A stretch of DNA of 64,000 bases from Candidatus Omnitrophota bacterium (GCA_035292445.1 DATDQB010000003.1:9692-73691), one strand, 5' to 3'; shown: positions 1,021 to 38,972, counted from the stretch's first letter. Program-made: numbers and translations. Notes: a model not told the origin generated them from the letters alone.

Positions 1021-3657
1021 CTACGGCGCGGTGATGACCGTAACGGCCTTGCTAAAATCCAAATATGTCCTGGCGAGGCGTTGGATGTCTTCGGGCGTAA
1101 CGGCGCCGATCTTCTTTTCATAATTCTTATGCTCTTCATACCCCAGCCCGTAAAGCTCATCCAGGCCGGATGTGAAAGACAGCGCGTCGTTGGTTTCCAA
1201 GCCCGCCTTAAAATTCCCTTTCAAATACGTTTTGATGTCCTCCACCTCTTGAAGCGGGGCGAGCTCTTCCTGAAGCAGGCGGATCTCTTTTCGAATGATC
1301 TGTTCGATCGTTTCAACCGCTTCTTTCTCGGTCAACACATAAAAGGCGATCAATCCCGTGTCCAGACCCGGCATCTGGTAATCCCCCATCGTATACGCCT
1401 TGCCCAATTCTTCGCGGATGCTGTTGAAAAGCCTGCCGCTGAAGGAAGAGCCCATGTAGGTCCCCAGCACCTCCAGGCCGTAACGGTCCGGATGGTACAT
1501 ATCGACGCCGTGAAACCCGATCATCACCAACGCCTGCTCCTTGTTGAGCTGCACAGCGATGCGCTTGGGCTCGCGGATGAGTTCTTCTTCGTGCTTTTCA
1601 AAAACAACGTCTTTTCGTTTAAGGCTTCCCAGGAATGATCTCAGCTGGGCCAATACCTCCGGCGGATCGATATCGCCAAAGACACTGACCACCATATTGT
1701 TGGGGACGGCCCAATCGCTATAATAGGCCGCGATATCCTTTTGCTCGATAAGCACGAGCGTTTCGTTTGTCCCAAGACTATCCATACGATAGGGATGCTT
1801 TTCAAAAAGGTTCTTTCTCAGCGCAAAGCTTGTCAGGGGGAAAATGTTTTCATCCCGCTGGCGGATGGCTTTGAGCATGTCTTCTTTCTTCCTTTTGATC
1901 TCATCCGCAGGAAAAACCGGCTGTGTGATAATTTTGCCCAGCAGATCAAGGGCTGTCTTGGTGTCCTGCGACAACAGGCTCATGGAAAGGCCGAAACTGT
2001 TGTTGCCGGCGTAAGCGCTCAGATCGATCCCCAAGCCTTCGGTCATCTCTTCGATCTGTTGGGACGATAGCGACTTGGTCCCCTTGGTCCACACATGCGC
2101 CATCAATTGCGACACGCCGTTTATCGATGGCGGTTCTTTGATGAGCCCGCCTTTGAACATGACCCGCACCGATACCAACGGGAACGTCGCGTCTTTCCTT
2201 AACAAAATGCTGATGCCGTTATCCAGGGTGACTTTTTGTATCTCTTCCTGGGCAGCCTCCGGTTGCGGCAACGGCGTTTCATCTTGCTGGCCCGCCGGCT
2301 TCAACACGGTGACGCTCAAACGCTCGGGGCGAAGATAGGCGCGGGCCACCCGCTGGATGTCTTGTGTTTTGACCTTTTTGATTTCCTCAACGTATTTCTG
2401 CGAAAAAGTATAATCCCCCGCGAACGTTTCATCAACGGCCTGATGCCAGGCGACGCTGGAGGCCTTTTGGTTGCCCTTAATGTAATCGCTCAACACTTGC
2501 CGCTGCGCCTTCTCCAGTTCGGCCTTGGTGACGCCTTTGGATTTAAGAGTATCGACCTCCTGCCAAACGGTCGTTTCGATTTCCTTCACGTTCTTCGTTT
2601 CGCACAGGGCTTCGACTTCGAACAACCCCGGATCAACCGGCGTGTAGTTGCTGGCGTACACGGAATAGGCGATGCCTTTTTCTTTATACAATTTCTGATA
2701 AAGCCGCGAGCTTTCGCCCTGGCCCATAACAACCGCCAGCACATCCAGCGCGTACATATCTTCGTTCAAGAGGCTCACCCCCTGAAACGCCATGGACAGC
2801 CGCGCCAGGTCCGTTGGATACTCTTCCTCAAAACGCCGCGCGCTGATCTGCGGCGGCTCCTGCGGCACAATATCCAACACGAAAGGCTGCCGGGGAATGC
2901 TGTTTAATTTTTCGATGATCTTACCCTTGATCTCTTCGGTCTTGATATTTCCGGCAACGGAAAGAATGATATTATTGGGGGCGTAATGCTGTTTGTAATA
3001 CTGCCACAGCTCCTCGCGGGTGATCCGGCCGAAGAGATCCTCGTAACCGATAACAGGATGGCGGTAGGTGTGCTTGAGGTAACTGTTTTGAAAGGCGAGC
3101 CGGCCCAGCCACGAGTCCGGATTGTCCTTGTGCAGGCGCATCTCGGCAAAAATGACGTCCCTTTCCTTTTCCACTTCTTGAGGGTCGATCGGCGCGTTGA
3201 ATAACATACCGGTGAGCGTATCCAATGCCATTTCAAAATGGTCGTTGGGGACATTGACCGTGTAAATGGTGAAATCCTGGCCTGTGGAAGCGTTGATGTT
3301 TCCGCCTACGGCCTGGACTTTAGCAGCCAATGCGCCGCCGGGCTGGCCGTGGGCCCCCTGAAAGAGCATATGTTCGAGAAAATGAGAAATGCCGCTGCCG
3401 ACGAACTCCCCTTCCCTGGCAGAGCCGGTGCGCACGAGCCCGTACACGGAAACCATGGGGCTCGTTGGCATCTCGCTTATGAGGACGACCAACCCGTTGT
3501 CGAGAACGAACCGCTGCGAAGGGCCAGCGGCCCAAAGTGACGAGACAAAGGCGCCGCCTACAAAGATAAAAGCCAATAACGCGCTCGTTAAGAAGCGCTT
3601 ATTGCTTTTTCTTTTTATGATATTCTTCCAGAAGTTTTCTGATGTCGGTTTCGGCAT
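1021..3657 (-). CDS. secreted M16 (pitrilysin/insulinase) family zinc peptidase, tandem M16 units
   Basis: 878 aa. N-terminal signal/TM (LLAFIFVGGAFVSSLWAAG). Inverted zinc motif HFLEHMLFQG (HxxEH) with downstream E. Length is consistent with a duplicated M16 active/inactive half pair. Confidence 0.85.
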   Translation of the reverse strand: MPKPTSENFWKNIIKRKSNKRFLTSALLAFIFVGGAFVSSLWAAGPSQRFVLDNGLVVLISEMPTSPMVSVYGLVRTGSAREGEFVGSGISHFLEHMLFQGAHGQPGGALAAKVQAVGGNINASTGQDFTIYTVNVPNDHFEMALDTLTGMLFNAPIDPQEVEKERDVIFAEMRLHKDNPDSWLGRLAFQNSYLKHTYRHPVIGYEDLFGRITREELWQYYKQHYAPNNIILSVAGNIKTEEIKGKIIEKLNSIPRQPFVLDIVPQEPPQISARRFEEEYPTDLARLSMAFQGVSLLNEDMYALDVLAVVMGQGESSRLYQKLYKEKGIAYSVYASNYTPVDPGLFEVEALCETKNVKEIETTVWQEVDTLKSKGVTKAELEKAQRQVLSDYIKGNQKASSVAWHQAVDETFAGDYTFSQKYVEEIKKVKTQDIQRVARAYLRPERLSVTVLKPAGQQDETPLPQPEAAQEEIQKVTLDNGISILLRKDATFPLVSVRVMFKGGLIKEPPSINGVSQLMAHVWTKGTKSLSSQQIEEMTEGLGIDLSAYAGNNSFGLSMSLLSQDTKTALDLLGKIITQPVFPADEIKRKKEDMLKAIRQRDENIFPLTSFALRKNLFEKHPYRMDSLGTNETLVLIEQKDIAAYYSDWAVPNNMVVSVFGDIDPPEVLAQLRSFLGSLKRKDVVFEKHEEELIREPKRIAVQLNKEQALVMIGFHGVDMYHPDRYGLEVLGTYMGSSFSGRLFNSIREELGKAYTMGDYQMPGLDTGLIAFYVLTEKEAVETIEQIIRKEIRLLQEELAPLQEVEDIKTYLKGNFKAGLETNDALSFTSGLDELYGLGYEEHKNYEKKIGAVTPEDIQRLARTYLDFSKAVTVITAP

Positions 3658-4132
3658 TGCGGGCGATCTGGGAACAGATAAAAATCAACAATGAAAACGG
3701 CCACACATCCTCCGGGCCGGCAATGAGCCCGGTCTTGACGTTTTCTTTCTGCTGCAACAGGCTTTCATAATGCTTGATGGCCGTTGAAAGTTTTCCCCCG
3801 TAGACTTCCAGCGAAACGGTGCGGTTGTCGTAACGGAATGACGGCACGCTCACCCCCCGCACCAACAAAAAATTCATCATGGTATTTTCGTTGAACGCCA
3901 ATTCCTCGAATTCAAATCCTTTGAACTGCGGGTTGTTCGGCGGCACGATCAACGTCGGCTTCTCCACAACAACTTCTCCTTGGCGGACCACCGTATCCCC
4001 CATGTTAACGCTGGACTCTGACAAAAGGATATACGGGACATAGGTCGCCCCGGTCGTCATCAACGCCTGCACGCGGGCACGGATGATCTCCGTATTTCTT
4101 AACGCCTTTTCCCAAGCTTGTTCGATGCTCAT
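3599..4132 (-). CDS. hypothetical protein
   Basis: 177-aa ORF. Its 3' end overlaps the annotated start of the M16 gene by 59 bp. No recognisable motif. Confidence 0.4.
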   Translation of the reverse strand: MSIEQAWEKALRNTEIIRARVQALMTTGATYVPYILLSESSVNMGDTVVRQGEVVVEKPTLIVPPNNPQFKGFEFEELAFNENTMMNFLLVRGVSVPSFRYDNRTVSLEVYGGKLSTAIKHYESLLQQKENVKTGLIAGPEDVWPFSLLIFICSQIARNAETDIRKLLEEYHKKKKQ

Positions 4133-4235: not shown

Positions 4236-4322
4236 CGGAGAGGGTGAGATTCGAACTCACGAGCCACTTGCGTAGCCACACGCCTTCCAAGCGTGCTCTT
4301 TCAACCGCTCAGACACCTCTCC
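4236..4322 (-). tRNA. tRNA-Ser (anticodon GGA)
   Basis: The reverse complement folds as a cloverleaf: GGAGAGGTGTCTGAGCGGTTGAAAGAGCACGCTTGGAAGGCGTGTGGCTACGCAAGTGGCTCGTGAGTTCGAATCTCACCCTCTCCG. Acceptor pair GGAGAGG/CCTCTCC, anticodon loop TTGGAAG, long variable arm, T-loop GTTCGAATC. No encoded CCA. Confidence 0.85.
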
Positions 4323-4593: not shown

Positions 4594-6243
4594 ATGATTT
4601 TTATGAGATACGCCAAGCCCCTTCCGCTCATTCTTATCGCCTCTTTACTGCTTAAATTATTCTACTGGTGGGAACTGACCCTTAATCCCCTGCCGAAAAT
4701 TGCCATTATTGATGAAACCTACGACCAATCCCGTTTCTATCAAGCGGCCATAGGAATATTGTCCGGTGACTGGCTGGCCTCCAGCGCCAACTGGTTCTCC
4801 CCCGTTTATTCTTATTTTATCGCCCTGATTTTAAAAATAACAGGGGCCGATTTCTATCATGTCTTATTGGTCCAAACACTTATTGGCTGGATAGGCATCA
4901 TCCTTATCTACAAAAGCGTTCAAATTCTTTTTAAAGACGCCCGGCTGGCTCTGCTGAGCGCTTGTCTTTTTGCGTTTTACGCTCCCTTTACTTTTTATGA
5001 AGGCATCCTCAACAGGGACATTCTCATCACCTACGGGTATTTATTCAGTTTTTATGCCGCTCTAAAAACGATTGAAAATAAAAAATCAATTTGGTTAGTG
5101 ATGGCTGCCTTTTCTTTAGGGTTAACCATGGTCCTGCGCGGGCATGTTTTACCGCTTCTGCTCGGTATTTATCTGCCCCATAGCATGGGTGGATCCTGGT
5201 CACAAAAATGTCGCCACATCATTCTTTTTGTGCTTATCTTCACCCTGACACTTGCGCCTTTCTGGTTACGCGATCAATTATTGAGCAAAAAAACTTCTGT
5301 ATCTTCTCAAGGTTTTTCTGTCTTTTGGGTTGGCAACACCTATGAGTCGTCGGGCCTTGACGTGTATCGCACGCCTTTAAGAGAATCCTTGACGCAAGAA
5401 ACTGAAGAGAACCTGTTTAAAGCGGTTAAGATCTTCATCCGGGAGATCAAAAAACACCCCCGGGAATACCAATACCTTTATCTGCGTAAATTCTACATGC
5501 TCTTTAACAGTTACGAGATCCCGGCTAACATGAGCTTTGATCAGGCTAACGAGAATTCAAGAATATTAAGATTTTTCATTATTAACGCTTCCTTCGTTCT
5601 GCCCCTGGCGTTATTGGGTATGTTTTTATGTTGGGCCAAAAGAAAAGAATGTGCCCTCCTTTATCTGTTTACCGTAATTTTACTTCTGGGCGTAGTTCTA
5701 TTCCACGTTCAAGCCAGATATCGCTTACCGGCCATCCCCTATCTGATCATTTTTGCAGCATATAGCTTGTCTTGGCTATTGCGAACCATCTATCAACGCC
5801 GGATCCTCTTATGCGCCGGCGGATTGTGCTTGTGGTCATTGTTTTCCGCTTTTACCTCGCCGGCCGATGAATTTATCAAGAGATGTTTCATCTCCCACAT
5901 CAGGCCATCCGATTACTTAAACCTGGCTATCGCCTACTATTTTGAATACAGTAGCAACCAAAACCTGCTTAATAACGAAAAAAAAGATTTTATTTTGCAA
6001 AAAGTCTCTGTCAATCTGGAGCAGGCAATCAAATATTGGCCCGCCCAAGATAAAAAATTCATATCCGAAATCTCGACCATGCTCGGTGATATTTATTGGA
6101 TACGGGGAAAACGAAAAGAAGCATTAGCGACCTTTGAAAAAGCGCTGTTACTTAATCCCAACAGCGCTGACTTAAGGCGCTCCGTTGAATTCATGAAAGG
6201 ATTCGGAGTTCTCCCTGATAAAAAAATTAACGTTACGCTGTGA
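4594..6243 (+). CDS. GT-C fold membrane glycosyltransferase (PMT_2/ArnT, GT39/GT83-like) with C-terminal TPR
   Basis: 549 aa. More than 10 predicted TM helices with an early lumenal loop DE-type motif (IIDETYD). C-terminal soluble TPR-like segment (ATFEKALLLNPNSADLRR). Confidence 0.65.
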   Translation: MIFMRYAKPLPLILIASLLLKLFYWWELTLNPLPKIAIIDETYDQSRFYQAAIGILSGDWLASSANWFSPVYSYFIALILKITGADFYHVLLVQTLIGWIGIILIYKSVQILFKDARLALLSACLFAFYAPFTFYEGILNRDILITYGYLFSFYAALKTIENKKSIWLVMAAFSLGLTMVLRGHVLPLLLGIYLPHSMGGSWSQKCRHIILFVLIFTLTLAPFWLRDQLLSKKTSVSSQGFSVFWVGNTYESSGLDVYRTPLRESLTQETEENLFKAVKIFIREIKKHPREYQYLYLRKFYMLFNSYEIPANMSFDQANENSRILRFFIINASFVLPLALLGMFLCWAKRKECALLYLFTVILLLGVVLFHVQARYRLPAIPYLIIFAAYSLSWLLRTIYQRRILLCAGGLCLWSLFSAFTSPADEFIKRCFISHIRPSDYLNLAIAYYFEYSSNQNLLNNEKKDFILQKVSVNLEQAIKYWPAQDKKFISEISTMLGDIYWIRGKRKEALATFEKALLLNPNSADLRRSVEFMKGFGVLPDKKINVTL

Positions 6244-6255
6244 TACGCAAAGAAA

Positions 6256-6921
6256 TCATTTCTTGGTGAACACAACGACGTTCAGATGGGGGAATTCGCA
6301 GTGCCAATCCAACCACTTGGCGACCCAAAGGAATGTTTGCTGCCGAAAGAAACAGATGTGCGTCGGCTCTTTAAGATACCACCAATTCGAAAAAGGCTCT
6401 TTCTCCTGCCAAACCTCGGTCATGACGGCGATCGTGCCTCCCGCCCTTAAGAGGCGCTCCCATAAAATAAAACTTTCCCGGGGGAAACGTAAATGTTCGA
6501 GGACCTCCGTGCAGGTGATAAAATCGTATTGGCGTTCCAGTAATTTTTTCTCCGGAAAATAAAACGGGTCATAATCAAAGACCCTCAACCCTTCTTTTTT
6601 TAAGATGGCACTGACCGTCGGCCCTGGCCCGCAGCCGAAATCGAGGCCCTCCCATCCCGGCTTGAGCCGCCACAGCAAGGGGCCGGTCAGCTTTGATAAA
6701 AATTTGACATACGCTTCATCATCAGGACTGTTCTCATGAAGGTCATATCTTTCCTTTTCCCGCGCCGGGTCCAAATGAAAAGGACTCGGCACGAAGATCA
6801 AGAAGCAACGTGGGCAATGGTAATAATCTTTTTTTACACCTCCGGAGGGTTTCACCACGGCGTAAAGAGAAATTTCATCGTTTTGACATAATGGGCATTG
6901 TTGCGCCTGTGTTACGGTCAT
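6256..6921 (-). CDS. class I SAM-dependent methyltransferase with N-terminal CxxC zinc ribbon
   Basis: Motif I LDFGCGPG. Acidic motif II region (VFDYD). N-terminal CPLC...CPRC. 4-bp overlap with the downstream TPR/GT-C gene. Confidence 0.8.
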   Translation of the reverse strand: MTVTQAQQCPLCQNDEISLYAVVKPSGGVKKDYYHCPRCFLIFVPSPFHLDPAREKERYDLHENSPDDEAYVKFLSKLTGPLLWRLKPGWEGLDFGCGPGPTVSAILKKEGLRVFDYDPFYFPEKKLLERQYDFITCTEVLEHLRFPRESFILWERLLRAGGTIAVMTEVWQEKEPFSNWWYLKEPTHICFFRQQTFLWVAKWLDWHCEFPHLNVVVFTKK

Positions 6922-8792
6922 TTATTCAATTCCTCAACATACCCCGGGTCCGCCTGGTAGCCCAGATCAAGGGCTTTTTGAAGATAATGCCTGGCTTGAT
7001 TGATATCGTCCAACTTGTAATAAGAATAAGACAAATTATAATACGCGGCGGCAAAATGAGGATCGAGCGCAACCGCTGACTTGAAATCCCTGATGGCGAT
7101 CGTGAATTCTCCGAGAGTATTATATGTCGCCCCGCGGTTGTTGTACGCCTTGGCATAGTTGGGGTCGAAGAAAACAGCTTTCGTAAAATCTTCCAGGGCT
7201 TCTTCGGTCTTCCCCAAGAACAAATAAACTGTTCCCCGCTCATTATAACTTTCCGGATGGCTGGGATTCATTTCGAGCGCTTTGTTCAAGTCGTTTAACG
7301 CTCTTGTGTACTCTTTCATTTTGGCGTATTGCGTCCCGCGGTTGTGGTAAGCGTTGAAATAATACGGGTCCAGATCCAGCGCTTTGTTGAAATCCTGGAG
7401 CGCCTTGAGATGCTGCCCCAGCCGCATATAAGAAACGCCGCGGTTGTTGAACGCTTCGCTGTTGTCGGGCGCCAGCAAGAACACTTTCTCGTATTGCGCG
7501 ATCGCTTTTTCGTATTCTCCCTGCTGCGCGTACGCCACACCGAGATTCAAATTCGGATTGACCATCCGCGGTGATTTCTGGACGTTATCCGACCAGAATG
7601 TGACAGGGTCCGACCAGGTCTTGTTGCGCTGATAGGTCAAAAACGACAAAACCAATACCGCCAGGCCCACCAGAAAAATAGCGACTTTCCTGTTAAAGGT
7701 AAAAACCACGGCGCTTAGGGCCAGAAAAATGCCGATGGACGGCAGGTACGTGCGGTGCTCGAAAATGACATGGCCGATGACGATGGCGCTGGACTCGATC
7801 GAAAGAGTGATGAAAAACCACAGCAACCCAAAGCCGATCAGCCGATTGAATTTCAGCATCCCGATGGCAAAGGCCAGCAGAAAACACACCATCAACATGC
7901 TGAAAGCGGTCTCGGGCTCCTGCAGGCTGGTGGACATCGGATAATCATAAATAAAATTCTGCTTCAAAGGGAACACCAACAATTTTAAATATGTCAGGAT
8001 GACGCGAAACTGCGTCAAAAAGTAAGTCATGGGCGTCAGGATATCCCCGATATGGGAACTTGATGGCCGCTCAACGGAGAAAAGCCCGGCCACGTTAAAA
8101 GAATAGTACGCGGGAATAGAAAGCGCGATGGCAACAGGAACGGCCCAAAGCAGCCATTTCCTCCGCTTTGTTCCGGGAAAAAATATTTGATCATACACGA
8201 TGATCATGACCGGTAGCGTGAGGGCGATCTGCTTGCTTAAGACAGCTCCGGCACAGCCAAGGAATACGCCCAATAGATACCCCCATTGCTTCTTGAGCCG
8301 AAACGCGGCGTAGAAACACAGCGTCAACACGTAAAAAAGCGTTGCCAAGGACGTAAAACGCTGGCAAATGTAGGTAACGGATTGGGTCGCCAGCGGATGT
8401 ACCAGGAACAATAACGCGGCGGCGAATGAGGCCGCAGGCGCATGGCGGGCGATCGCTTTCTCGCGCAAGAGCGGAGATCGCATCGTCAGATAAGCGAACC
8501 ACCACACCAGGCCGGCATTAAGGATATGGATCGCCACGTTGACAACGTGATAGCCAAAGACATCCAACTGGTAGAAATGGTAGTTGAGCGCGAAGCTTAA
8601 GAAAGGAATGAACCGAAGCGGCGCGTAGCTTCCCCAGAAAATGGTGCTGATATTATCGAGATGCTTAAGGGACGGGTTGCGGACGATATAATAGATATCG
8701 TCGAAAACAAACGGGCTGTGGAAGGCGTTGGAATAAACGGCCACCCCCAGCCCCAGGAGGATAAAAATTTTTAAGGGCGTTGCCCATCTCAT
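6918..8792 (-). CDS. TMTC-like (DUF1736/PMT_2) membrane protein O-mannosyltransferase-type GT-C with about 7 C-terminal TPR repeats
   Basis: 624 aa. N-terminal motif FVFDDIYYIVRNP...YHVVNVAIHILNAGLVWW is shared with the paralogs at 20218 and 22551. Multiple TM helices. C-terminal TPR units (NLGVAYAQQGEYEKAIAQYEKVFLLAPDNSEAFNNRG...). Confidence 0.75.
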   Translation of the reverse strand: MRWATPLKIFILLGLGVAVYSNAFHSPFVFDDIYYIVRNPSLKHLDNISTIFWGSYAPLRFIPFLSFALNYHFYQLDVFGYHVVNVAIHILNAGLVWWFAYLTMRSPLLREKAIARHAPAASFAAALLFLVHPLATQSVTYICQRFTSLATLFYVLTLCFYAAFRLKKQWGYLLGVFLGCAGAVLSKQIALTLPVMIIVYDQIFFPGTKRRKWLLWAVPVAIALSIPAYYSFNVAGLFSVERPSSSHIGDILTPMTYFLTQFRVILTYLKLLVFPLKQNFIYDYPMSTSLQEPETAFSMLMVCFLLAFAIGMLKFNRLIGFGLLWFFITLSIESSAIVIGHVIFEHRTYLPSIGIFLALSAVVFTFNRKVAIFLVGLAVLVLSFLTYQRNKTWSDPVTFWSDNVQKSPRMVNPNLNLGVAYAQQGEYEKAIAQYEKVFLLAPDNSEAFNNRGVSYMRLGQHLKALQDFNKALDLDPYYFNAYHNRGTQYAKMKEYTRALNDLNKALEMNPSHPESYNERGTVYLFLGKTEEALEDFTKAVFFDPNYAKAYNNRGATYNTLGEFTIAIRDFKSAVALDPHFAAAYYNLSYSYYKLDDINQARHYLQKALDLGYQADPGYVEELNK

Positions 8793-8793
8793 C

Positions 8794-18634: not shown

Positions 18635-20212
18635 CTAAGGCCCCAAATCATAAACAAGCGCCGCGGCATTGCGCGCCTTTGTGCTTGGGCCTGCTTTGCC
18701 TTCCCTGTCAAGATAGGCTGGTATGAACTCCGGTAGGCGCAACCGCGGATGGCTATAGACGAGCCACGTCCTTTTGTTCTCCCCGAACACCCCGCGCCCG
18801 CTCAGATAATGCTTCGTAAAGTCTTCCGTTGACGCCGATGTCGCGTAGCAGCCGCGCTCGTCAAATGACACGCTCATCGGCCACAGGTAGATATAAGGGC
18901 CCCGGGCATCATGAAAAACCTCATCGGAAAACTTGATCAAACGGGCCTCCGGCTCTTTCCACCCGAAATAACAGTGATAATAAACATAGCCGTACTGGGC
19001 CGAATCATTGATGTAAAGGCTGTCCTGCGGCTGTTTTTGCCCCTTCAAGACCGCCATGACGCTGCGGATATCTTCCTTGCTTTGCTGATGAGAGATGTAA
19101 CCCAAGGCTGAGCGCAGCGGATAAAAGAGCAGAAGTACGGCCGTTACAGCAGCCAACAGCGGCCGCACGGCCGGGGACTGAAATTGCCAAAATTGAAAAG
19201 CCCCCTGCACTAGCAAACACAAGGTGAGCGGCATCAGAAAAAGGAGCATCCGGCTTTCAAAAGGATACAGCCGCATTGCAGACAAAAAGAACATCAAAAC
19301 AACGGGCGCTGCCAAAAATAACGTCATCCGTTCCTTTTTGCTGACCGCTGTTGCCAAGCCCACGATAATAAAGAAAACACCAAGGCCTGCCGGCAGCCCA
19401 AGACCCTCGCGGAAGAACCCTTCTGTTTGGGCGGCGATCCATCCGGCGTTTTCCATCAACCCATTTTGTAAAGGCGCGAAACTCCCGTGCCAATATCGCA
19501 AAAGCCCCTCGTCCTGCAGGAAATACCGAAGGGACAATTTAAAATAGCTGATAAAAGCCAGGGCCCAGAAAGATAACATCAATGCCAGCCAACGGGCCTT
19601 GCGCCCCTCGCCGCTTCGAAGGTAAAAAATAAAAGAAAGCCCGCCCCAGGACATCAGCACAACAATGCCGATAAAAGAAAAATAAATGCCGGCAACCCCG
19701 ACCAGCGTCAGCGCGAGCAAGCGCCGCCAGCTGAAAAAAACCTTCTCGATGTTTAAAAACAACAAAAGAAAGCCCAGCGCCACCATGCAATCGAGCGAAA
19801 ACGGCTTAAGTTGGTTGGCATATTGGATCGGCATCGGGGCAAAGCTGAACAAGGCTAGCGCCAGCACATCCCAGGGGTAAATAAAAAATTTTTGCGTGAC
19901 GCGGGCGAACAGCCACAACGAAGCGAGAGCGCTCGCCAGAGGAAGCAGCCTCAACACCATCTCATGGGGGCCGAGGAAAGATACCAACGCCTTCTGCGCC
20001 CAAAGAAAACCGGCCGGATAAGCGTGCATTTTCCCAAAATCGGAGCCGCCCCTTTGGATCATTTCCCCCATGGAAAGTGAGATCAGTTTGTAGGCGGTTG
20101 CCGCCTCGTCCAGCCACAGCGGGTGGTTCGCAAAGTATTCCTGAAGACGGAAAAAAACGCCCAGCAAAATTATTCCCCAGACGGATGCGTTCTTCAGGGT
20201 ATTTTTGGCCAT
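18635..20212 (-). CDS. GT-C fold membrane glycosyltransferase (ArnT/PMT-like), paralog of the 8794 gene
   Basis: 525 aa, more than 10 TM. First loop motif LWLDEA (DE motif of GT39/GT83). C-terminal soluble domain. Confidence 0.6.
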   Translation of the reverse strand: MAKNTLKNASVWGIILLGVFFRLQEYFANHPLWLDEAATAYKLISLSMGEMIQRGGSDFGKMHAYPAGFLWAQKALVSFLGPHEMVLRLLPLASALASLWLFARVTQKFFIYPWDVLALALFSFAPMPIQYANQLKPFSLDCMVALGFLLLFLNIEKVFFSWRRLLALTLVGVAGIYFSFIGIVVLMSWGGLSFIFYLRSGEGRKARWLALMLSFWALAFISYFKLSLRYFLQDEGLLRYWHGSFAPLQNGLMENAGWIAAQTEGFFREGLGLPAGLGVFFIIVGLATAVSKKERMTLFLAAPVVLMFFLSAMRLYPFESRMLLFLMPLTLCLLVQGAFQFWQFQSPAVRPLLAAVTAVLLLFYPLRSALGYISHQQSKEDIRSVMAVLKGQKQPQDSLYINDSAQYGYVYYHCYFGWKEPEARLIKFSDEVFHDARGPYIYLWPMSVSFDERGCYATSASTEDFTKHYLSGRGVFGENKRTWLVYSHPRLRLPEFIPAYLDREGKAGPSTKARNAAALVYDLGP

Positions 20213-20217
20213 AAAAA

Positions 20218-22554
20218 TTATTTCTGCTGTTGCGCCCTCTCGAATTCGAGGAGGTAAAAGGCGTCAACGAGATGCCCCAATTCTTTGGCTTTATTGATGT
20301 CTGCCCAGGCAGAATTGTATTCTTTAAGCTCGTACTCAACGAGCGACCTTAGGAAATAAACTTCCGCCAGGCCCGTATCGAGCAAAAGGGCCATATCATA
20401 ATCATCTTTGGCCTTTTTATAAACTTTTAGCCGGTAATACAGTTTGCCGCGCTCGGTGTAGGCCTGCGCCAGCTTGGGGTTTATTTCAATGATCTTGCTG
20501 AAATCAAGCAAGGCGGCATGAAAATCTTCCCGGAGCATCAGTGTGAGCACCCGGTGGCTAAGGGCCTCAAAATGATTGGGGCGCAAATCAAGCACTTTAT
20601 TGAAATCAGACAAAGCCTCAGGGTGCTTGTTCATCTGCTGGTAAATTTCTCCCCGGGTTAAAAGCGCATTGATATGCCCCGGTTCAACCTGGAGGATGGA
20701 CGTAAAGTCCAATAACGCGAGATCTTTTTTATCGAGAATCAAGTAGGTCAAGGCGCGGTTATAAAAGGCATCCACATAACGCCTGTTGATCTCAATGGCC
20801 TTGCTAAAATCCTGCAAGGCCGCCTCAAATTGCTTTCCTCGCAAATAAATGGTCCCGCGGTTGCTGTAGGCTTGGTAAGAGCCCGGCTCCACCTCAATGG
20901 CTTTATTGAAATCGTCGAGAGCAAGCTGCATCAGGCCCTTTTGCCCGTAGCATATCCCTCTGTTGCTATAGGCGCCCATCATCTGGGTATTGAGCTCAAT
21001 GGCTTTGCTGAAATCTTTGATGGCCTGATCGCAATCATTGCTTTTTTGGTAGAGCGTGCCCCGCGTGGCATACAGAAAAGACTGCTGGGGGTGCGCCTCG
21101 ATCGCCTTGTTTAAATCGTTAAAGGCCATGTCCCCTTTCCCCATGTCTATATAGATGTTTGCCCGGTTATTCAAAACATGAAGGTATCCGGGGTTGAGCA
21201 TAAGCGCTTTATTGAAATACTGTAGCGCGCGTTCGTTGTCTTTTTTCTTCATGTATTCATAGCCTAAGTTATAATAAGGTCGCGGATTGAGCGGCGCTTT
21301 CTCAATAGCATCTTTCCACAATACGATTGGGTCCTGCCACACTTTATTACGTTGATAGGTTAAAATCATAAGAATGCAACCAATGATGCCGATCACGGCT
21401 AAAAAAAAATTTTTATTTTTGATAAGCTCGTAAACCGTAAAAACGGCGGAAATGCTCAATCCCGCAAGCGGCAAATACGCGCGGTGCTCAAAAATCACGT
21501 GGCGGATGGGGATGACGCTTGATTCGACGAGGCTGGTCAAAAAGAAGAAATATATGCCAAAGGAGACCAAAGGATGGCGACGGTGCACTTTGGCGCCGAA
21601 AGCCAGCAACAATAAAAGAAAAGCCGCGCTGGCAAACGTTTGCCCTTCAAAAAAACCCCGCGAAACGGGCATATAATGGTCGATGGTCTGCCCGATCGGA
21701 AGAAAGAACAGGCTGATATATTTCACCAGCACGCGAAACTGCGTACAAAGGTAAGTGTACGCGTTGATGTCCCCGGGAATATAATTGCCCGGCTCCAGCG
21801 TGACGAAAAAGACCTGCCTGAAATTAAAACGGTAAAGCGCCGGGACGATCAGCGCCAACAGGATAATGGCCGGCACCGCCACCTTCATCCACCGCCGGCG
21901 CTCCTTAGAATCGGGAACGAACATCCATTCCGCCATAAGGATACAAAACGGCAGCGTGAAGGCTATTTGTTTAGTGAACATGGCCAATAAAGCGCTCATC
22001 AAAGACGCAACCAACACAACGATCCGCAGGTAAGGCTTAAGGCCGCCGAGCCGGGCCTTAAGGTAAAGGCAAACGCTCAATAGGTAAAAAAGCGTCGCTA
22101 GCGACGCGAAACGCTGCATGATATAGGTCACGGCCTGGGTCTGTAACGGATGGGCCAAAAAAATGAGCGCGGCACAAAAGGCCAATGCCTCGCCATGTTG
22201 TTTCAACGGTTGAACCGTGCTCTTGGGTGAGCTTAACAGCAGCCGGGTGAGCCACCACAGGAGAATGGCATTCATAAGGTGGATCCCTACGTTGACAACA
22301 TGATAACCCAACACCTCCAAGCCGTGCAAATGGTAATTGATGGCAAAGGTCAAATAACCGATGACCCGAAAGAGCCCGTAAGCCTCAATGATCCCGCTTA
22401 GATCGGGAAAGTTCCTTATGGTCGGATTTTCCACGATGTAAGGCTCGTCATCGAACTGAAAAGGCACGTTAAAGCTGTTGGAATATATCGCGAGGCCTAT
22501 CAGCGCCAAAAGGCCAGCCGGGAAAATAAGCTTTGGTCTCAAATTGATCTTCAT
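20218..22554 (-). CDS. TMTC-like GT-C membrane protein with long C-terminal TPR array (about 10 repeats)
   Basis: 778 aa. N-terminal FQFDDEPYIVENP...YHVVNVGIHLMNAILLWW is paralogous to the 6918 and 22551 genes. Many TPR units (AYSNRGICYGQKG..., YNLGYEYMKKKDNERALQYF...). Confidence 0.75.
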   Translation of the reverse strand: MKINLRPKLIFPAGLLALIGLAIYSNSFNVPFQFDDEPYIVENPTIRNFPDLSGIIEAYGLFRVIGYLTFAINYHLHGLEVLGYHVVNVGIHLMNAILLWWLTRLLLSSPKSTVQPLKQHGEALAFCAALIFLAHPLQTQAVTYIMQRFASLATLFYLLSVCLYLKARLGGLKPYLRIVVLVASLMSALLAMFTKQIAFTLPFCILMAEWMFVPDSKERRRWMKVAVPAIILLALIVPALYRFNFRQVFFVTLEPGNYIPGDINAYTYLCTQFRVLVKYISLFFLPIGQTIDHYMPVSRGFFEGQTFASAAFLLLLLAFGAKVHRRHPLVSFGIYFFFLTSLVESSVIPIRHVIFEHRAYLPLAGLSISAVFTVYELIKNKNFFLAVIGIIGCILMILTYQRNKVWQDPIVLWKDAIEKAPLNPRPYYNLGYEYMKKKDNERALQYFNKALMLNPGYLHVLNNRANIYIDMGKGDMAFNDLNKAIEAHPQQSFLYATRGTLYQKSNDCDQAIKDFSKAIELNTQMMGAYSNRGICYGQKGLMQLALDDFNKAIEVEPGSYQAYSNRGTIYLRGKQFEAALQDFSKAIEINRRYVDAFYNRALTYLILDKKDLALLDFTSILQVEPGHINALLTRGEIYQQMNKHPEALSDFNKVLDLRPNHFEALSHRVLTLMLREDFHAALLDFSKIIEINPKLAQAYTERGKLYYRLKVYKKAKDDYDMALLLDTGLAEVYFLRSLVEYELKEYNSAWADINKAKELGHLVDAFYLLEFERAQQQK

Positions 22555-24572
22555 TGAGCTGCTCCCGCCGTCTTCATTTCCCTTGCCTTGGAAAGGTTCT
22601 TGATGGCGCTCACATAATCCGGCTTGATCTGCAGGATCCGCACAAACATCGCTTCGGCCTTTTCATATTGCCCGTGTTTCCCATAGATCACGCCTAAAAC
22701 ATTCATCGCGTCGAGATTATTCGGGTCCTGCGATAAAACGTTCTCCAGATAAACCTTGGCCAACTCCTCATTGCCCTCCTCATAAAGAAGAAGCCCCAGG
22801 TTATTGTTGGCCTCAATATAATCCGGCTCAAGAAGAAGCGCCTGCTCATAATATTCCCGCGCCTTCGGCCGGTCGTTCAAGCGGAAATGAAGAAACCCTA
22901 AATTGTTCATCGCCTCGATGTATTGCGGGTCGAGGGAGAGCGCCTGCTCATAATATTTTTTAGCCTCCTCAAGATCGCCTTCCTCCAAAAGGACATTGGC
23001 CAGGTTGTTCAGGGCCTCTTTATTGGTGGCCCTCGCTTCAATGGCCTGCCTGTACAACTCTTTGGCCTCCTGCGCCTTTCCGTCATAGTACATCGCCAAG
23101 CCCTGGTTATTCAACGTCTCGCTGTCAAAAACGCTTTTATCCATTGTTTGTTGCATAAGGCTCATGGCCTCCTGGTCGCGGCCCATCTCCTGCGTAACGC
23201 GAACAAGATTGGAAAGGGCTTCGGGATTCGCCGCCTTCATCGCCAGCGCTTTCTTGAAATAAAGCTCGGCTTCCTGCCAATTTCCTTTTTCGGCGTATAT
23301 CGCGCCCAAATTATTGTACGCCTGGACAAAACTGGGGTTAAGCCGGATGATGCGCTGATAAAAAGCGACCGGCTCGCCCCAAACGAGGCTCTGAGCGGCC
23401 GTCAGAACACCGTATATAACGGCCAAGACAACCACCAGTGCGCCGGCCATATGTTTCAAAGGCGCCGATATACCGACGATCATGAGAGAAACTCCCAGGT
23501 AAAAACCGATGGATGCCGTATAAAGCCAGTGCTCGGCCATGTACGCGTTCATGGGGTATATGTTCGCAACCGGTAAAAGCGCGGCCAGAAACCAGGCGCA
23601 GGCAAAAAAAACCGTGCGGCGGCCGCGCCAATATATTGCGCCTAAACAAAGCATCCCGAGGATAACCAACCCTGCCCAGGCCCTAAGGTCCGCAAACGTA
23701 AAGACCATGAGCCCGTAGCCCATGTGCAGATCCTGCGGCCACAGTAGAAGCCTCGCATATTCGAATAACGCGACAAAAGATCCTGGCAAACGATCCATGA
23801 GCGTTGTTTTGACGGCCCCTGAAACCTCGTCGCCGAAACGCCCGGCAGCGTAGACGATAGCCAATAATCCGACGGGAATAAGCCCCTCCCAGGAAGACCT
23901 CTTTTCATGGGCAAGATGGATAAGGACCAGTAACGCAGGCGCGATCACCGCGTATTCTTTGGATAAAAGCGCGGCCGCAACAAAAACGCAGGCGCCGGCC
24001 AACAAACGTTTCTTGCCCCGCACCAGGTATCTTTCATAGCATAGGCACGAGAGAAGTATGAACAGCGCGACCAATAGATCCGCCCGGGAGGAAATGTAAA
24101 CAACGCTTTCCGTCTGGATGGGATGAATAAGGAAAAATAACGCCGTCAAAAAAGAAACGGCCCGTTGGGCAAACAGCGCATCGATAAGGAAGAATAATGC
24201 TATCCCCGTTGCCGCATGAAGAAGGATGTTGCTTAAATGAAAACCAAAAGGATTAAGGCCCCACAACCGCGCGTCAAACTTGTAGCTTAACATCTGCAGC
24301 GGCCGGTAAAAGCTCTCTTCGCTCCCGCCCAACACATTGCGCTGGAAAATTGGCGCCAGATTGCCCGGCGACTTGATGAGCTCATTGTTGACGATGAGCC
24401 CGTGATCGTCCCAGATAAAGGGGCTGAAAAGCGCTTTGGCGTAAATTAATAAAGTTGCCCCCACCAATAGGGAACACGCCAAGGCCTTGGAAGAAAGGAA
24501 CCGGAAAGGCAAGTTAGGTTGGATGGGTTTCATAAGAATGTCGGATCCTGCTTCGCTAAATTGCTTTCGCAT
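22551..24572 (-). CDS. TMTC-like GT-C membrane protein with C-terminal TPR array
   Basis: 673 aa. FIWDDHGLIVNNELIKSP...FHLSNILLHAATGIALFFL N-terminal domain, TM helices and TPRs. ATGA start/stop overlap with the upstream paralog points to an operon. Confidence 0.75.
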   Translation of the reverse strand: MRKQFSEAGSDILMKPIQPNLPFRFLSSKALACSLLVGATLLIYAKALFSPFIWDDHGLIVNNELIKSPGNLAPIFQRNVLGGSEESFYRPLQMLSYKFDARLWGLNPFGFHLSNILLHAATGIALFFLIDALFAQRAVSFLTALFFLIHPIQTESVVYISSRADLLVALFILLSCLCYERYLVRGKKRLLAGACVFVAAALLSKEYAVIAPALLVLIHLAHEKRSSWEGLIPVGLLAIVYAAGRFGDEVSGAVKTTLMDRLPGSFVALFEYARLLLWPQDLHMGYGLMVFTFADLRAWAGLVILGMLCLGAIYWRGRRTVFFACAWFLAALLPVANIYPMNAYMAEHWLYTASIGFYLGVSLMIVGISAPLKHMAGALVVVLAVIYGVLTAAQSLVWGEPVAFYQRIIRLNPSFVQAYNNLGAIYAEKGNWQEAELYFKKALAMKAANPEALSNLVRVTQEMGRDQEAMSLMQQTMDKSVFDSETLNNQGLAMYYDGKAQEAKELYRQAIEARATNKEALNNLANVLLEEGDLEEAKKYYEQALSLDPQYIEAMNNLGFLHFRLNDRPKAREYYEQALLLEPDYIEANNNLGLLLYEEGNEELAKVYLENVLSQDPNNLDAMNVLGVIYGKHGQYEKAEAMFVRILQIKPDYVSAIKNLSKAREMKTAGAAQ

Positions 24573-24679: not shown

Positions 24680-24767
24680 TGGCGGAGAGGCTGGGATTTG
24701 AACCCAGGAGGCCTTTCGACCTAACGCTTTTCGAGAGCGTCGCTTTCAACCACTCAGCCACCTCTCC
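24680..24767 (-). tRNA. tRNA-Ser (anticodon CGA), CCA encoded
   Basis: Reverse complement: GGAGAGGTGGCTGAGTGGTTGAAAGCGACGCTCTCGAAAAGCGTTAGGTCGAAAGGCCTCCTGGGTTCAAATCCCAGCCTCTCCGCCA. Anticodon loop CTCGAAA. Long variable arm. Confidence 0.85.
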
Positions 24768-24836
24768 AGAAATTTTCTTCGAAAATTTTTGGATCTCGAG
24801 CCCCGCCAAAGGCGGGGCGAGAAATCTCAAACTTTG
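24768..24836. promoter_or_regulatory. conserved twin-hairpin element (AT-rich palindrome + GC hairpin GGATCTCGAGCCCCGCC-AAAG-GCGGGGCGAG) upstream of tRNA-Ser; also the terminator of the upstream gene
   Basis: A near-identical 41-nt copy lies at 27908-27949 upstream of tRNA-Ser(TGA). The AT palindrome differs in sequence but keeps its pairing (aaattttc/gaaaattt versus ataaatttg/caaatttat). Confidence 0.55.
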
Positions 24837-25588
24837 GTTCTTACCCACCCCGTATAGGCCTTCAGTTGCTCGATGTCATCGGGGCGGAAGATCTCATAAA
24901 TTTTAACCAAAGGAACGTGGCTGTCCAGCAGTTTCTTGATGAAGGCGTTCCTAAGCCGCTCGTCTTTGAAATCACTCCATTTAAGCAGCTTGAAACGCTC
25001 ATCCAGCATGGCCTCACCGATCAGGTATCTCAAAACCAGCTGCTCTTTGCTGTTGGCGACCCGTTGGTATTCCCGCAGCTCTTTTTCCGCCATCACCGCC
25101 GGAGCCTTGAGGGCGAGCGCTTTGACATGAAGCAGCGGATTGTCGTTCAGGTAAGACTTCTTGATGGCAAAATCCAACACGCACTGCAGAAGGAACAGTT
25201 GAAAATTAACCTCCGGTGGACCCTCCCCTTTTTCTCTTAAGCAATCGCGGTATTGTTCGGCCACGTTGGGGGTTATACGAGAGAGTTTTGTTTCGCGGGG
25301 CAGCTTTTCCTTTAAGAATTTCCCGAAGCGTTCGATGGCCTTTTTAAAATGCTCGAATGTGGCCGGCGGATGATTCCTTTGGGCTTCTTGCAGGAACTGG
25401 TTGAAAAAGATGCCGATATCCTGGTCAGGGATGACGTTGCTCATCGCCCCTTGCGGCAGGGAGCTTTCAATTTCCAAGAGGAGTTTTTGGGCGCGTTCTT
25501 TATCCTTGCCGGCGTATTTCTCAAACAGCAAGCCGTTGCCGTAAAACTGGACAAAATATTCATCGCCTCGTTTAATTATTTTTGCCAT
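24827..25588 (-). CDS. hypothetical protein with a segment resembling a tyrosine-recombinase N-terminal core-binding (SAM-like) domain; no catalytic domain
   Basis: ITPNVAEQYRDCLREKGEGPPEVNFQLFLLQCVLDFAIKKSYLNDNPLL resembles an integrase N-terminal domain. The R..HxxR..Y catalytic residues are not found. 253 aa. Confidence 0.4.
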   Translation of the reverse strand: MAKIIKRGDEYFVQFYGNGLLFEKYAGKDKERAQKLLLEIESSLPQGAMSNVIPDQDIGIFFNQFLQEAQRNHPPATFEHFKKAIERFGKFLKEKLPRETKLSRITPNVAEQYRDCLREKGEGPPEVNFQLFLLQCVLDFAIKKSYLNDNPLLHVKALALKAPAVMAEKELREYQRVANSKEQLVLRYLIGEAMLDERFKLLKWSDFKDERLRNAFIKKLLDSHVPLVKIYEIFRPDDIEQLKAYTGWVRTKV

Positions 25589-25623: not shown

Positions 25624-27105
25624 TTAGGAGAGAGGGACTTTTTGTCCTTCAAGAACTTCGATAAAGGCTTCCACCAAATCCTGGTCAAGCTCGTTTCTCA
25701 TGCTGCGCAGGATATCGCACGCCGCGTCTTTGGTAAAACGGTTGCGGTACGCGCGGTCCGTTGTCAGCGCGTCAAAGATATCGGCGATCTCAAGGATGCG
25801 CACCAAGGGTGAGATCTCATCGCCTTTTAAGCTGTCCGGATAACCGCTCCCATCGAGCTTTTCATGATGGTGGCGGATCAGGTCACACAGGTTATGTAAC
25901 GAACGTACCGGCTTGATGATGCTTTCGCCGATCTCGGTATGGCGTTTCATCAGATCCTTTTCCTGTTCGGTCAACTTGCCTTCTTTATTCAGCACCTCAT
26001 CGGGGATGCCGATCTTCCCGATGTCATGAAGGCGGGCAGCATCGCGCAGCGATTTGATATCCTCTTCGTCCAAGCCCAGCTTCTCTCCCATCATGACGCA
26101 GTATTTGGCCACGCGGTCCAGATGCCCGCGGGAATATTTGTCTTTGGCGTCAATGGCCAAGGCGAGCGCCGTGATGGTCTCAAAATAAGTCTTCTCGATG
26201 TCTTTATTGAGCTGCGCGTTCTGGATGGCGATCGCCGTCTGGCTGGCCAGGTTAAAGAGGAGGTTTTTTTCTTCTTCGTCAAACCGGCCGTGGTCTTTAC
26301 GGCCGCTCACCAAAATCACGCCGAGCACCTCGTCTTTGGTCACCATGGGCGCGCATATCAATGGCGGTTCAAACAGATGCGGCGCCTCATCGGCCTCCGA
26401 CAAATCGGAAATAGCCTGCTCCATGATGAGCGGCTGCTTGATGGAGATGACGGTATGAATCGTCGTGCCCTTTTCCAGCTTAAGGCGGATATCCTCATTG
26501 GGCTTTAATTTGACGCCGTAGACCGTCTTGACGTACAGCTCGTTTTTATCCTTGAGCATCAGCACTCCGACGTTACCGTTTAAGGCGTCGGTGACGGTCT
26601 CCACGATCAGATCAAGGAACGAATCGATGTTCTCCAGCGACGTCATGCCCTGGCCGACCTTGCTCAATACGGAATGGAGCGTCCTTTTGGCGAGCTCAAG
26701 GCTGCGGACGTTCTCATCCATGCGCTTGGTGATGATCTTGAACGCCTCGGCGAGGACATTGAGTTCGTTTTTTTCTTTCGTCAGCTCCTCGATCTCGCTG
26801 GGGCTTAAAGACTCCTCCATCAGCTCCCGGTTGGTCAGGATCAGATTGACCAGCTTGACCAATGCGGAGCGCATCGTAAAATACCCAAGGATGACGCCCA
26901 GGACCACGAAGATCATCGTTAAATTGAAATTCTCCTCAGAGATGGTGATCTGGCCGTAATCGCGCAGCTGCACATAGAAATAATACAGGACGACAGTGGG
27001 GATAAACGACATGAGCAAAAACAGGATGGAAAACTTCCTTAAGAGGGATGCGTTCTCAATGGACCCAACGACACGGCGTTTATGGATTTTTTTCTTTTTC
27101 TTCAT
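25624..27105 (-). CDS. membrane-anchored GAF + HD-GYP domain c-di-GMP phosphodiesterase
   Basis: HD motif RLHDIGKIGIP. HHEKLDGSGYP (HD-GYP signature). Upstream GAF-like region. N-terminal TM. Confidence 0.85.
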   Translation of the reverse strand: MKKKKKIHKRRVVGSIENASLLRKFSILFLLMSFIPTVVLYYFYVQLRDYGQITISEENFNLTMIFVVLGVILGYFTMRSALVKLVNLILTNRELMEESLSPSEIEELTKEKNELNVLAEAFKIITKRMDENVRSLELAKRTLHSVLSKVGQGMTSLENIDSFLDLIVETVTDALNGNVGVLMLKDKNELYVKTVYGVKLKPNEDIRLKLEKGTTIHTVISIKQPLIMEQAISDLSEADEAPHLFEPPLICAPMVTKDEVLGVILVSGRKDHGRFDEEEKNLLFNLASQTAIAIQNAQLNKDIEKTYFETITALALAIDAKDKYSRGHLDRVAKYCVMMGEKLGLDEEDIKSLRDAARLHDIGKIGIPDEVLNKEGKLTEQEKDLMKRHTEIGESIIKPVRSLHNLCDLIRHHHEKLDGSGYPDSLKGDEISPLVRILEIADIFDALTTDRAYRNRFTKDAACDILRSMRNELDQDLVEAFIEVLEGQKVPLS

Positions 27106-27790: not shown

Positions 27791-27799
27791 ACAAAATAA

Positions 27800-27884
27800 C
27801 GGAGGAGTAGGGATTCGAACCCCAGATGCCTCGCGGCATAACGGTTTTCAAGACCGCCGCATTCAACCACTCTGCCACTCCTCC
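27800..27884 (-). tRNA. tRNA-Ser (anticodon TGA)
   Basis: Reverse complement: GGAGGAGTGGCAGAGTGGTTGAATGCGGCGGTCTTGAAAACCGTTATGCCGCGAGGCATCTGGGGTTCGAATCCCTACTCCTCCG. Anticodon loop CTTGAAA. Long variable arm. No encoded CCA. Confidence 0.85.
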
Positions 27885-27952
27885 ATAAATTTGCGGAGCA
27901 AATTTATGGATCTCGAGCCCCGCCAAAAGCGGGGCGAGAGATCTCAAACATG
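27885..27952. promoter_or_regulatory. second copy of the twin-hairpin element (ATAAATTTG-CGGAG-CAAATTTAT palindrome + GGATCTCGAGCCCCGCC-AAAA-GCGGGGCGAG hairpin)
   Basis: 40/42 nt identical to 24791-24833. The GC hairpin overlaps the TGA stop of the GIY-YIG gene, just as copy 1 overlaps the stop of the 24827 gene. Confidence 0.55.
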
Positions 27953-30524: not shown

Positions 30525-30545
30525 GGTTTCACGCGCCTTTATGCG

Positions 30546-31088: not shown

Positions 31089-31108
31089 ATATTCCCCGTT
31101 ATGAGAAG

Positions 31109-32278: not shown

Positions 32279-32297
32279 CTTAAGCTTAAGTTTCCTG

Positions 32298-33998: not shown

Positions 33999-34007
33999 TT
34001 TAAATGA

Positions 34008-35375: not shown

Positions 35376-35381
35376 AGGACT

Positions 35382-36500: not shown

Positions 36501-36510
36501 AACCTTAAGC

Positions 36511-37098: not shown

Positions 37099-37099
37099 G

Positions 37100-38362: not shown

Positions 38363-38422
38363 AATAGGACTCTCTTATTAAATTGCTGCGTTTAAAGTCG
38401 TTGACGTTAGGAAAATATTCGA

Positions 38423-38869: not shown

Positions 38870-38972
38870 GTTATCACCTTTCTTTTATTACTATTGTTTT
38901 GTTAACTTTGTTGGGGATTATTTCATAAATGGTCTAACAATCTGCCTGAAAAAACAACCACCTCCTTTTAAG

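Follow-up and report, generated by a model that had tools for sequence, protein, structure and literature searches.

TMTC1-4 modify Ser/Thr residues on beta-strands B and G in Ig-like extracellular cadherin (EC) domains (PMC11292533), and the motif list published for this family includes M1 (DD), M2 (SHKSYRP), M4 (KE[T/Q]xxT) and M7 (ERxxY) (Eisenhaber et al., PMC7801869). In bacteria, TfpW, the pilin O-arabinofuranosyltransferase of P. aeruginosa, is a GT-C enzyme that has been modelled on ArnT and has 11 predicted transmembrane (TM) helices; a DDX motif in its periplasmic loop 1 is essential, its C-terminal tetratricopeptide repeat (TPR) domain is periplasmic, and its gene lies beside pilA (bioRxiv 10.1101/2020.04.19.049825). 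We have analysed a stretch of 64,000 nucleotides from Candidatus Omnitrophota bacterium (GCA_035292445.1 DATDQB010000003.1:9692-73691; hereafter the window), where six genes for GT-C-fold membrane glycosyltransferases, at positions 4594-24572, surround the gene of a giant, secreted, Cys-rich protein of 2,024 amino acids (aa). An earlier reading of the sequence (the original prediction) suggested that these genes form a protein O-glycosylation system dedicated to the giant protein. Our analyses favour two independently conserved modules lying side by side, not a dedicated enzyme-substrate system, and we put the probability of this reading at roughly 60%. The dedicated system is unsupported because the giant gene with its YceI partner and the GT-C operon occur independently elsewhere.

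We have lettered the six glycosyltransferase genes A to F. Calling of open reading frames (ORFs) places them where they had been predicted, flanking the 2,024-aa ORF of the giant at 10881-16955 on the minus strand. On the same strand, the giant gene is followed by a gene for a YceI-like periplasmic lipid-binding protein (10322..10879, 185 aa; YceI E 2.6e-25), C (8794..10338), B (6918..8792) and a gene for an S-adenosylmethionine (SAM)-dependent methyltransferase, called MT (6256..6921, 221 aa; Methyltransf_23 E 2.6e-18), and is preceded by F (22551..24572), E (20218..22554) and D (18635..20212). Gene A (4594..6243, +) is on the strand opposite to the remaining cluster. The methyltransferase and YceI assignments are both borne out by Pfam, and E and F do overlap as ATGA.

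Other Omnitrophota genomes carry the GT-C operon with no giant gene in it. In four Omnitrophota genomes (loci L018, L019, L023 and L027) we have found three contiguous TMTC-like genes, followed directly by an ortholog of C (E 1e-90 to 1e-110) and then, according to phmmer, by an MT-like gene in all four; the MT orthologs among the blastp-annotated genes of L019, L023 and L027 show 43-45% identity, and in these three loci the run continues into homologs of the window genes 3599-4132 and 1021-3657. Neither a giant gene nor a YceI gene is present in any of the four loci. A neighbour-joining tree groups F with the third operon gene of L018, L023 and L027. In the genome HKST-UBA13, L018 adjoins another locus, L041, on one contig. 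L041 carries homologs of window genes 25624-27105 and 24827-25588, then two TMTC-like genes and a response regulator gene, and ~20 kb of other genes separate this block from the five-gene operon. The regulator is a 41%-identical homolog of the one lying downstream of F-E-D in the window (17724..18512, -; two receiver-like domains, Response_reg E 9e-36). The interval holds genes for a radical SAM protein, a glutaredoxin, a TPR protein, AhpC, a 776-aa S8-PKD protease without any Cys-rich region, and four signal-peptide proteins. Given this synteny, both GT-C blocks of the window have conserved counterparts, and the interval between them varies.

Just upstream of the GT-C operon, four signal-peptide proteins (~464, 210, 264 and 1,093 aa) are conserved in L018 (L018:51-6467), L019, L023 and L027; two of them give weak Pfam matches, WxLIP_PGBD and SdrD_B. 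These four are candidates for surface proteins, and the glycosyltransferases may have them as clients.

Beyond these relatives, the TPR-bearing GT-C family is very widespread. Among 8,000 candidates scored in the search with the membrane domain of E, 2,317 matched at E<=1e-5. The relatives are mostly unnamed or called 'tetratricopeptide repeat protein' (JGI sometimes gives 'protein O-mannosyl-transferase'), and several paralogs often share one contig. One peptide pattern finds at least 582 relatives in GTDB species genomes, often at several loci per genome, with matches spanning Omnitrophota, Planctomycetales, Bacteroidales, Syntrophales, Nitrospirae, Latescibacterota and Ignavibacteriota. We have sampled 80 family loci with up to 10 kb of flank on each side, and have counted 163 family ORFs in them. 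Half of the loci hold 2-7 tandem paralogs, and thus six GT-C genes within 20 kb are not special; such an array of paralogs is typical of this bacterial family, which is very common and has been little studied. A homolog of A appears in only one of the loci (L060).

The original prediction had raised the question of whether such genes co-occur with Cys-rich proteins. In the 80 loci there is neither a homolog of the Cys-rich region nor any ORF that reaches both >=400 aa and >=4% Cys, so that no relative of the giant stands beside the family there; an S8 protease occurs in only one. The GT-C paralogs are therefore widespread, with at least 582 GTDB relatives, and stand without a linked substrate in the 80 loci, a result that the original prediction itself had named as speaking against a dedicated system. 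The recurrent neighbours are response regulators, GT2 (9 loci), PMT_2/PMT (5 loci) and GT9 (5 loci) genes, which suit enzymes fed by polyprenyl-phosphate-sugars and indicate no fixed substrate gene.

The giant has a family of its own. A word-indexed search with its Cys-rich region returned one homolog only, which made it look nearly unique, and an exhaustive HMMER scan corrected this view: 37 proteins match at E<=1e-30, and ~17 of them, at 1,262-2,762 aa, have the full architecture of the giant. We have taken the context of this family from L002, L083, L087, L088, L163, L164, L165, L166/167 and L168. A YceI gene lies directly downstream of the giant-family gene in every locus whose contig reaches that far, starting within a few to ~120 bases of the protease stop codon in all loci with context. 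Most of these loci also share a housekeeping context, with SHMT, nrdR, a BFN-domain gene, a CCA-adding enzyme gene and a NUDIX gene upstream, and adh_short with an extracytoplasmic function (ECF) sigma/anti-sigma pair downstream. Most have no GT-C neighbour: L165 has none, and L166/167, L083, L087, L088 and L168 have none within the stretch examined, where several contigs end soon after YceI. Giant and YceI thus form one conserved two-gene module, in which the lipid-binding, lipocalin-like YceI, not the glycosyltransferases, is the constant partner.

Overall, the window is the only locus we have seen with the giant module inside the GT-C module, and adjacency of enzyme and substrate genes of the tfpW-pilA type recurs in other genomes neither at the 80 GT-C loci nor at most giant-family loci. 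The bracketing of the giant is a lineage-specific juxtaposition.

On the other hand, several observations weigh against keeping the two modules apart. In L164, a PMT_2 gene and a gene for a 522-aa membrane protein lie 2 kb downstream of the giant-family gene; in L002, the giant is adjoined by a divergently transcribed 715-aa protein with 9 TM helices and TPR (L002:7105-9252(-)); and in L163, a 1,047-aa Spermine_synth+TPR protein (L163:18239-21382) stands next to the giant. There may thus be a loose association between GT-C or TPR genes and giants. In addition, co-expression of the giant with C, B and MT is likely because of tight gene packing behind one promoter-like site. The same tree that places F leaves B and E without clear orthology to the first two operon genes. 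Finally, the cluster contains no polyprenyl-phosphate-sugar synthase. As to the associated proteins, L002 also has a 405-aa 9-TM protein with a WLDE motif near the giant, and no Pfam or NCBIfam model matches the membrane domain of its 715-aa protein; near the giants of L002, L163 and L164, the GT-C or TPR membrane proteins belong to different families. A GT2 gene of the window (45337-46440) was considered as the missing synthase and rejected, as its product is EpsD-like and without TM helices.

The packing concerned is that of giant, YceI, C, B and MT, with gene gaps of 1, -17, 1 and -4 nt: the start of C overlaps the end of YceI by 17 nt, and MT, the final gene of the run, shares 4 nt with B. 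A consensus scan of the stretch upstream of the giant gene gives a sigma-70-like site, TTGACA-17-TAAATT (16985..17013, -; 10/12 matches), as a candidate promoter for the run, which is a consensus match only, as Omnitrophota promoters are uncharacterised. These five genes are probably co-transcribed, judging from their arrangement. Since the giant is probably transcribed together with C, B and MT, it could be one acceptor in the source organism, but we consider this unlikely.

As had been predicted, all six enzymes are GT-C-fold glycosyltransferases, and they have an intact D-[D/E] motif. Pfam PMT_2 (PF13231; gathering threshold, 26.1 bits) is passed by A (549 aa; E 9.8e-14, 52.3 bits), C (514 aa; E 2e-15, 57.8 bits; also PMT, E 2.2e-9) and F (30.3-31.6 bits), while B, E and D stay below it on their own. 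B, E and F are paralogous over their membrane domains (BLASTP identity: B-E 42%, B-F 26%, E-F 25%); among A, C and D no mutual relationship is detectable by BLASTP. An acidic pair stands just after TM1 in 6/6 proteins (A IDE, B FDD, C VDE, D LDE, E FDD, F WDD), and it holds up in alignments: in a 26-sequence family alignment, with the numbering of E, D35 is invariant and D36 nearly invariant, and in the family alignment of D, D35/E36 are invariant.

From the 26-sequence alignment (A1) we have built an AlphaFold2 model of the E membrane domain, which has a predicted local distance difference test (pLDDT) score of 88, a predicted template modelling (pTM) score of 0.91 and ~11 TM helices, and whose best structural matches are protein O-mannosyltransferases (PMTs), at ~10% sequence identity in the alignments. 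Sequence searches of the PDB with this domain and with the 26-sequence profile gave nothing meaningful, and full-length E matched TPR proteins only. D (525 aa, motif LWLDE, with a C-terminal alpha/beta domain) is the most divergent case: no Pfam family matched D itself, and only 5 distant homologs were found, two of which match PMT_2. Its AlphaFold2 model (pLDDT 77) has 20 Foldseek matches at E<=1e-3, all of them GT-C, including STT3, ALG12, ArnT and PglB at E 2.6e-7 to 1e-4. Comparison of its profile with B/E/F by hhalign is not significant (probability 0.1%), with LWLDE aligned to FQFDD, and D has therefore been assigned to GT-C by structure. The grouping of A, C and D as PMT_2-like thus stands, for A and C by the Pfam model and for D by its fold and two of its homologs. 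The TPR domains claimed for the six proteins are confirmed as long, dense arrays in B, E and F; A has a single C-terminal TPR (TPR_2, aa 496-523), and C and D have none. From their motifs, the six enzymes look catalytically competent, and they are probably active, periplasm-facing and dependent on lipid-linked sugars.

B, E and F each consist of a TMTC-like GT-C domain and a TPR array: aa 1-~400 (FVFDD) and aa ~381-616 in B (TPR_1 E 1e-48), aa 1-413 (FQFDD) and aa ~401-765 in E, and, in F, a domain with FIWDD, FYRPL, SRAD and SKE followed by an array at aa ~404-663. The 26-sequence consensus of this family contains PFxFDD, TKEIxxTLP, NQNLDYDYP and VIFEHRLYLP, which, compared by eye with the list in PMC7801869, parallel the TMTC motifs M1, M4, M5 and M7. 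By the same comparison, all three proteins have M1 (DD); at M4, the consensus and F read TKE, and B and E read KQ; at M7, B and E share EHRxY, and F has EHWLY; and M2 is recognisable in F only (FYRPL). The 'DUF1736-type N-terminus' ascribed to the genes at 6918, 20218 and 22551 is not confirmed: Pfam DUF1736 (PF08409) is not detected in the membrane domains of B, E and F even at E<=10, nor in any of the 120 homologs listed. The conserved acidic loop NQNLDYDYP takes the equivalent place, which in TMTCs is between TM7 and TM8. Because the DUF1736 test failed, we keep B, E and F out of the TMTC family proper; the description that suits them best is TMTC-like proteins of bacteria within the PMT clan. 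Their identities, TPR matches and motifs uphold the claim of three TMTC-like paralogs with TPR arrays. In the model, an N-in topology with ~11 TM helices would put the TPR array in the periplasm, on the side of loop 1.

We can propose how the two modules work. Module 1, comprising F-E-D, C-B-MT and A, comes from the very large, paralog-rich bacterial GT-C family, many members of which would carry a periplasmic TPR array. From the fold, the donor should be a polyprenyl-phosphate monosaccharide, and each enzyme would take the sugar from it at the periplasmic face by means of the D-[D/E] loop after TM1. The acceptor would be held by the TPR or C-terminal domain, and would most likely be a Ser/Thr residue in a protein that is secreted or belongs to the envelope. 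Proteins are plausible as acceptors because PMTs are the best structural matches, the motifs are TMTC-like, and TMTC1-4 and TfpW modify proteins or are held to do so. In this respect the original prediction keeps its force (TMTC-like motifs, PMT-like fold, TfpW precedent), and what is lost is the dedication to the giant. MT probably modifies the sugar or its donor, and the donor monosaccharide would possibly be methylated. Module 2 is the giant secreted Cys-rich subtilisin-type protease with its constant partner YceI; in the window this module lies within the GT-C array, and it probably shares a transcript with C, B and MT.

MT shows a weak DVU_1556-type match (NCBIfam). A representative GT2 protein from the sampled loci (L009:8399-9961), similar to ArnC, AglJ and dolichyl-phosphate-hexose transferases, forms a fusion with a methyltransferase that is, like MT, of the DVU_1556 type, and this fusion hints at a methylated lipid-linked sugar donor. 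In the window cluster, MT is present and an ArnC-like GT2 is not.

The giant itself is, by its domains, a secreted subtilisin-type (S8) protease with a Cys-rich N-terminal region. It is laid out as a signal-peptide-like N-terminus, the Cys-rich region (aa ~41-1330), a conserved mid region (aa 1331-1625), Peptidase_S8 (aa 1630-1908; E 5e-51) and a C-terminal domain. The secreted Cys-rich protein of the original prediction is thus real, and its protease domain had been overlooked. The S8 triad is intact (D1638/H1693/S1860, within DSG at 1638, HGT at 1693 and GTS at 1858), and the best NCBIfam match, a mycosin model, is below its cutoff. The Cys-rich region of 1,290 aa contains 170 Cys (13.2%) and matches no Pfam family; its C-x(1-2)-C motifs number 35, and most of them are C-x-x-C. 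Its linkers had been taken for Pro/Thr-rich O-glycosylation sites. They are actually three short Pro-rich stretches, with a Thr run in only one, and the region is not enriched in Thr (4.9%) or Ser (5.3%).

The Cys-rich region can be read as ~35 modules that have C-x(1-2)-C at their end. It contains two copies of a 74-aa unit (aa 717-790 and 791-864), which agree nearly completely over a stretch of ~40 residues; Tandem Repeats Finder reports no tandem repeats in the gene, so the duplication is visible at the protein level only. A ~45-aa module (aa ~959-1003, CQSDADCDDGLFCNGAETC...) is common to hundreds of otherwise unrelated large proteins. The possibility of a multiheme cytochrome was ruled out, as there is no CxxCH motif. 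In the literature on Omnitrophota giant proteins we have found nothing relevant to this locus.

The main functional rival to a protein acceptor is a non-protein one of the ArnT, Emb or Aft type. According to this explanation, the enzymes would act on envelope acceptors such as lipid A or the lipopolysaccharide (LPS) core, polysaccharide, or peptidoglycan-linked polymers, like ArnT, Emb/Aft and PimE, and the TPR arrays would be periplasmic scaffolds as in polysaccharide export systems. It gains from the GT9 heptosyltransferase and GT2 genes recurring near family members, and from TPR segments that score against the BcsC, PgaA and LapB models, although below the cutoffs. However, the motif set parallels that of TMTC, no NCBIfam ArnT or Emb model matched, and the characterised GT-C proteins with C-terminal TPR (TMTC, TfpW) modify proteins or are held to do so. 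We regard this alternative as possible but doubtful.

About equally tentative is the suggestion that the TMTC-like arrays of Omnitrophota and neighbouring phyla are a bacterial counterpart of the domain-specific O-glycosylation by eukaryotic TMTC/TMEM260, with different paralogs whose TPRs select different secreted or surface clients and a variable slot for such clients between the blocks. The slot would hold the giant here, and the S8-PKD protease with the four signal-peptide proteins in HKST-UBA13; on this view the giant would be one of the clients, and would share its transcript with C, B and MT.

The explanation we started from, that the six enzymes serve the giant exclusively and that the paralogs add different sugars or serve different sites, appears improbable. 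Its genes do flank the giant, the run from giant to MT is tightly packed, the catalytic motifs are intact, and the TPR arrays could bind an acceptor; YceI is of a periplasmic lipid-binding family, the tfpW gene adjoins the gene of its pilin substrate, and GT-C or TPR membrane proteins are found near the giant in L002, L164 and L163. Yet the arrangement is confined to the source genome, the operon of the relatives and most giant-family loci (L165 entirely, the others within their examined stretch) do without each other, the Cys-rich protein is missing from all 80 GT-C loci, the GT-C genes near other giants come from different families, and the linkers are not rich in Ser/Thr. The analogy drawn with TMTCs and Cys-rich cadherin domains is also inexact, because TMTC targets are the beta-strands of Ig-like EC domains (PMC11292533), and not Cys-rich modules or linkers. 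Glycosylation of type IV pilins after the TfpW precedent, with pilins from an operon 5-17 kb away (pilus/type II secretion system (T2SS)-like genes at 29.4-42 kb, with N_methyl pilin-like genes at 37100-37468 and 38423-38869), is very improbable, as the pilus genes are not adjacent to the cluster, a T2SSE homolog is nearby in only 3/80 family loci, and the small recurrent neighbour, a homolog of 41941-42309, is a response regulator and not the pilin for which it was first taken.

The cluster is bounded exactly by two tRNA-Ser genes found by ARAGORN, GGA (4236..4322, -) on the left and CGA (24680..24767, -) on the right; a third, UGA, lies at 27799-27885. The CGA gene adjoins a 253-aa ORF (24827-25588) that has an integrase SAM-like N-terminal domain only (Phage_int_SAM_5 E 5e-7). 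We have considered a genomic island bounded by tRNA-Ser genes and an integrase fragment, and have rejected it: recent insertion of the whole cluster as an island is unsupported because HKST-UBA13 (L041) shows synteny for the flanking genes, with the integrase-like ORF among them. Within the cluster, a HAD-family hydrolase gene (17043..17708, +; HAD_2 E 3e-40), on the strand opposite to the giant gene, is probably outside the glycosyltransferase system.

In the wider window, the type IV pilus/T2SS-like operon (29425-42309) includes PilM, PilN, PilO, T2SSF, T2SSE and two N_methyl pilin-like genes, and is interleaved with signalling genes for an FHA-GAF histidine kinase, a Ser/Thr kinase with TPR and three single-domain response regulators. 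About 21 kb from the GT-C cluster, at 45337-49170, there is a group of genes that resembles a cassette for polysaccharide modification: it codes for the soluble EpsD-like GT2, for a protein that has two methyltransferase domains, one of them RMNT/CmcI-like, and for an SGNH/AlgX-like protein. The GC content at 50000-54000 falls to 0.33-0.42 vs ~0.50 elsewhere, with a strongly negative GC skew, and ORFs of 1,221 aa and 731 aa (53730-59535) follow this low-GC stretch.

If the giant were indeed glycosylated as a client, the locus could serve as a compact bacterial model of substrate choice by TPR-bearing GT-C enzymes, a question that also arises for the disease-linked TMTC and TMEM260 enzymes of humans. 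The bacterial TMTC-like family is very large, and its conserved Omnitrophota operon comprises three TPR paralogs, a PMT_2 gene and a methyltransferase gene. This operon and the strict pairing of giant and YceI are the more solid by-products of this work. A further lesson is that bracketing in one genome is no proof of a dedicated system.

Compared with the known systems, human TMTC1-4, which belong to the GT-C/PMT clan and O-mannosylate cadherins, resemble B, E and F in having a ~11-helix GT-C domain and, C-terminal to it on the non-cytoplasmic side, a TPR array, with DD in loop 1 and, by eye from the motif list, counterparts of KE(T/Q)xxT, the acidic EL4 loop and E(H)RxxY. They differ in that B, E and F lack Pfam DUF1736, that B and E have KQ where TMTC has KE, that the donor would be a bacterial polyprenyl-phosphate-sugar whereas TMTC uses dolichyl-phosphate-mannose, and that the known TMTC acceptors are cadherin EC beta-strands, while no cadherin-like acceptor has been identified at this locus. 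The fungal and actinobacterial PMTs (GT39) share with the window enzymes the acidic loop-1 motif and the matches of A, C and F to PMT_2 and of C to PMT; unlike PMTs, the window enzymes are without the MIR beta-trefoil and have TPR or other C-terminal domains instead. By its described architecture (GT-C, ~11 TM helices, acidic loop-1 motif, C-terminal TPR), TfpW is like B, E and F, and since it is a characterised GT-C enzyme with TPR, the statement that bacterial TMTC-like proteins are essentially uncharacterised was overstated; unlike the array of the window, TfpW is a single gene beside pilA, and its sugar is D-Araf. ArnT (GT83), the lipid A aminoarabinose transferase, has the DE-type loop-1 motif and probably the undecaprenyl-phosphate-sugar donor chemistry in common with the window enzymes, which differ by their TPR or other C-terminal domains; no NCBIfam ArnT model matched, and the cluster has no arn genes. 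The giant, for its part, has the S8 domain and intact D/H/S triad of subtilases, and is set apart from other subtilases by a 1,290-aa, 13%-Cys region and a family-specific mid region before S8, and by its pairing with YceI.

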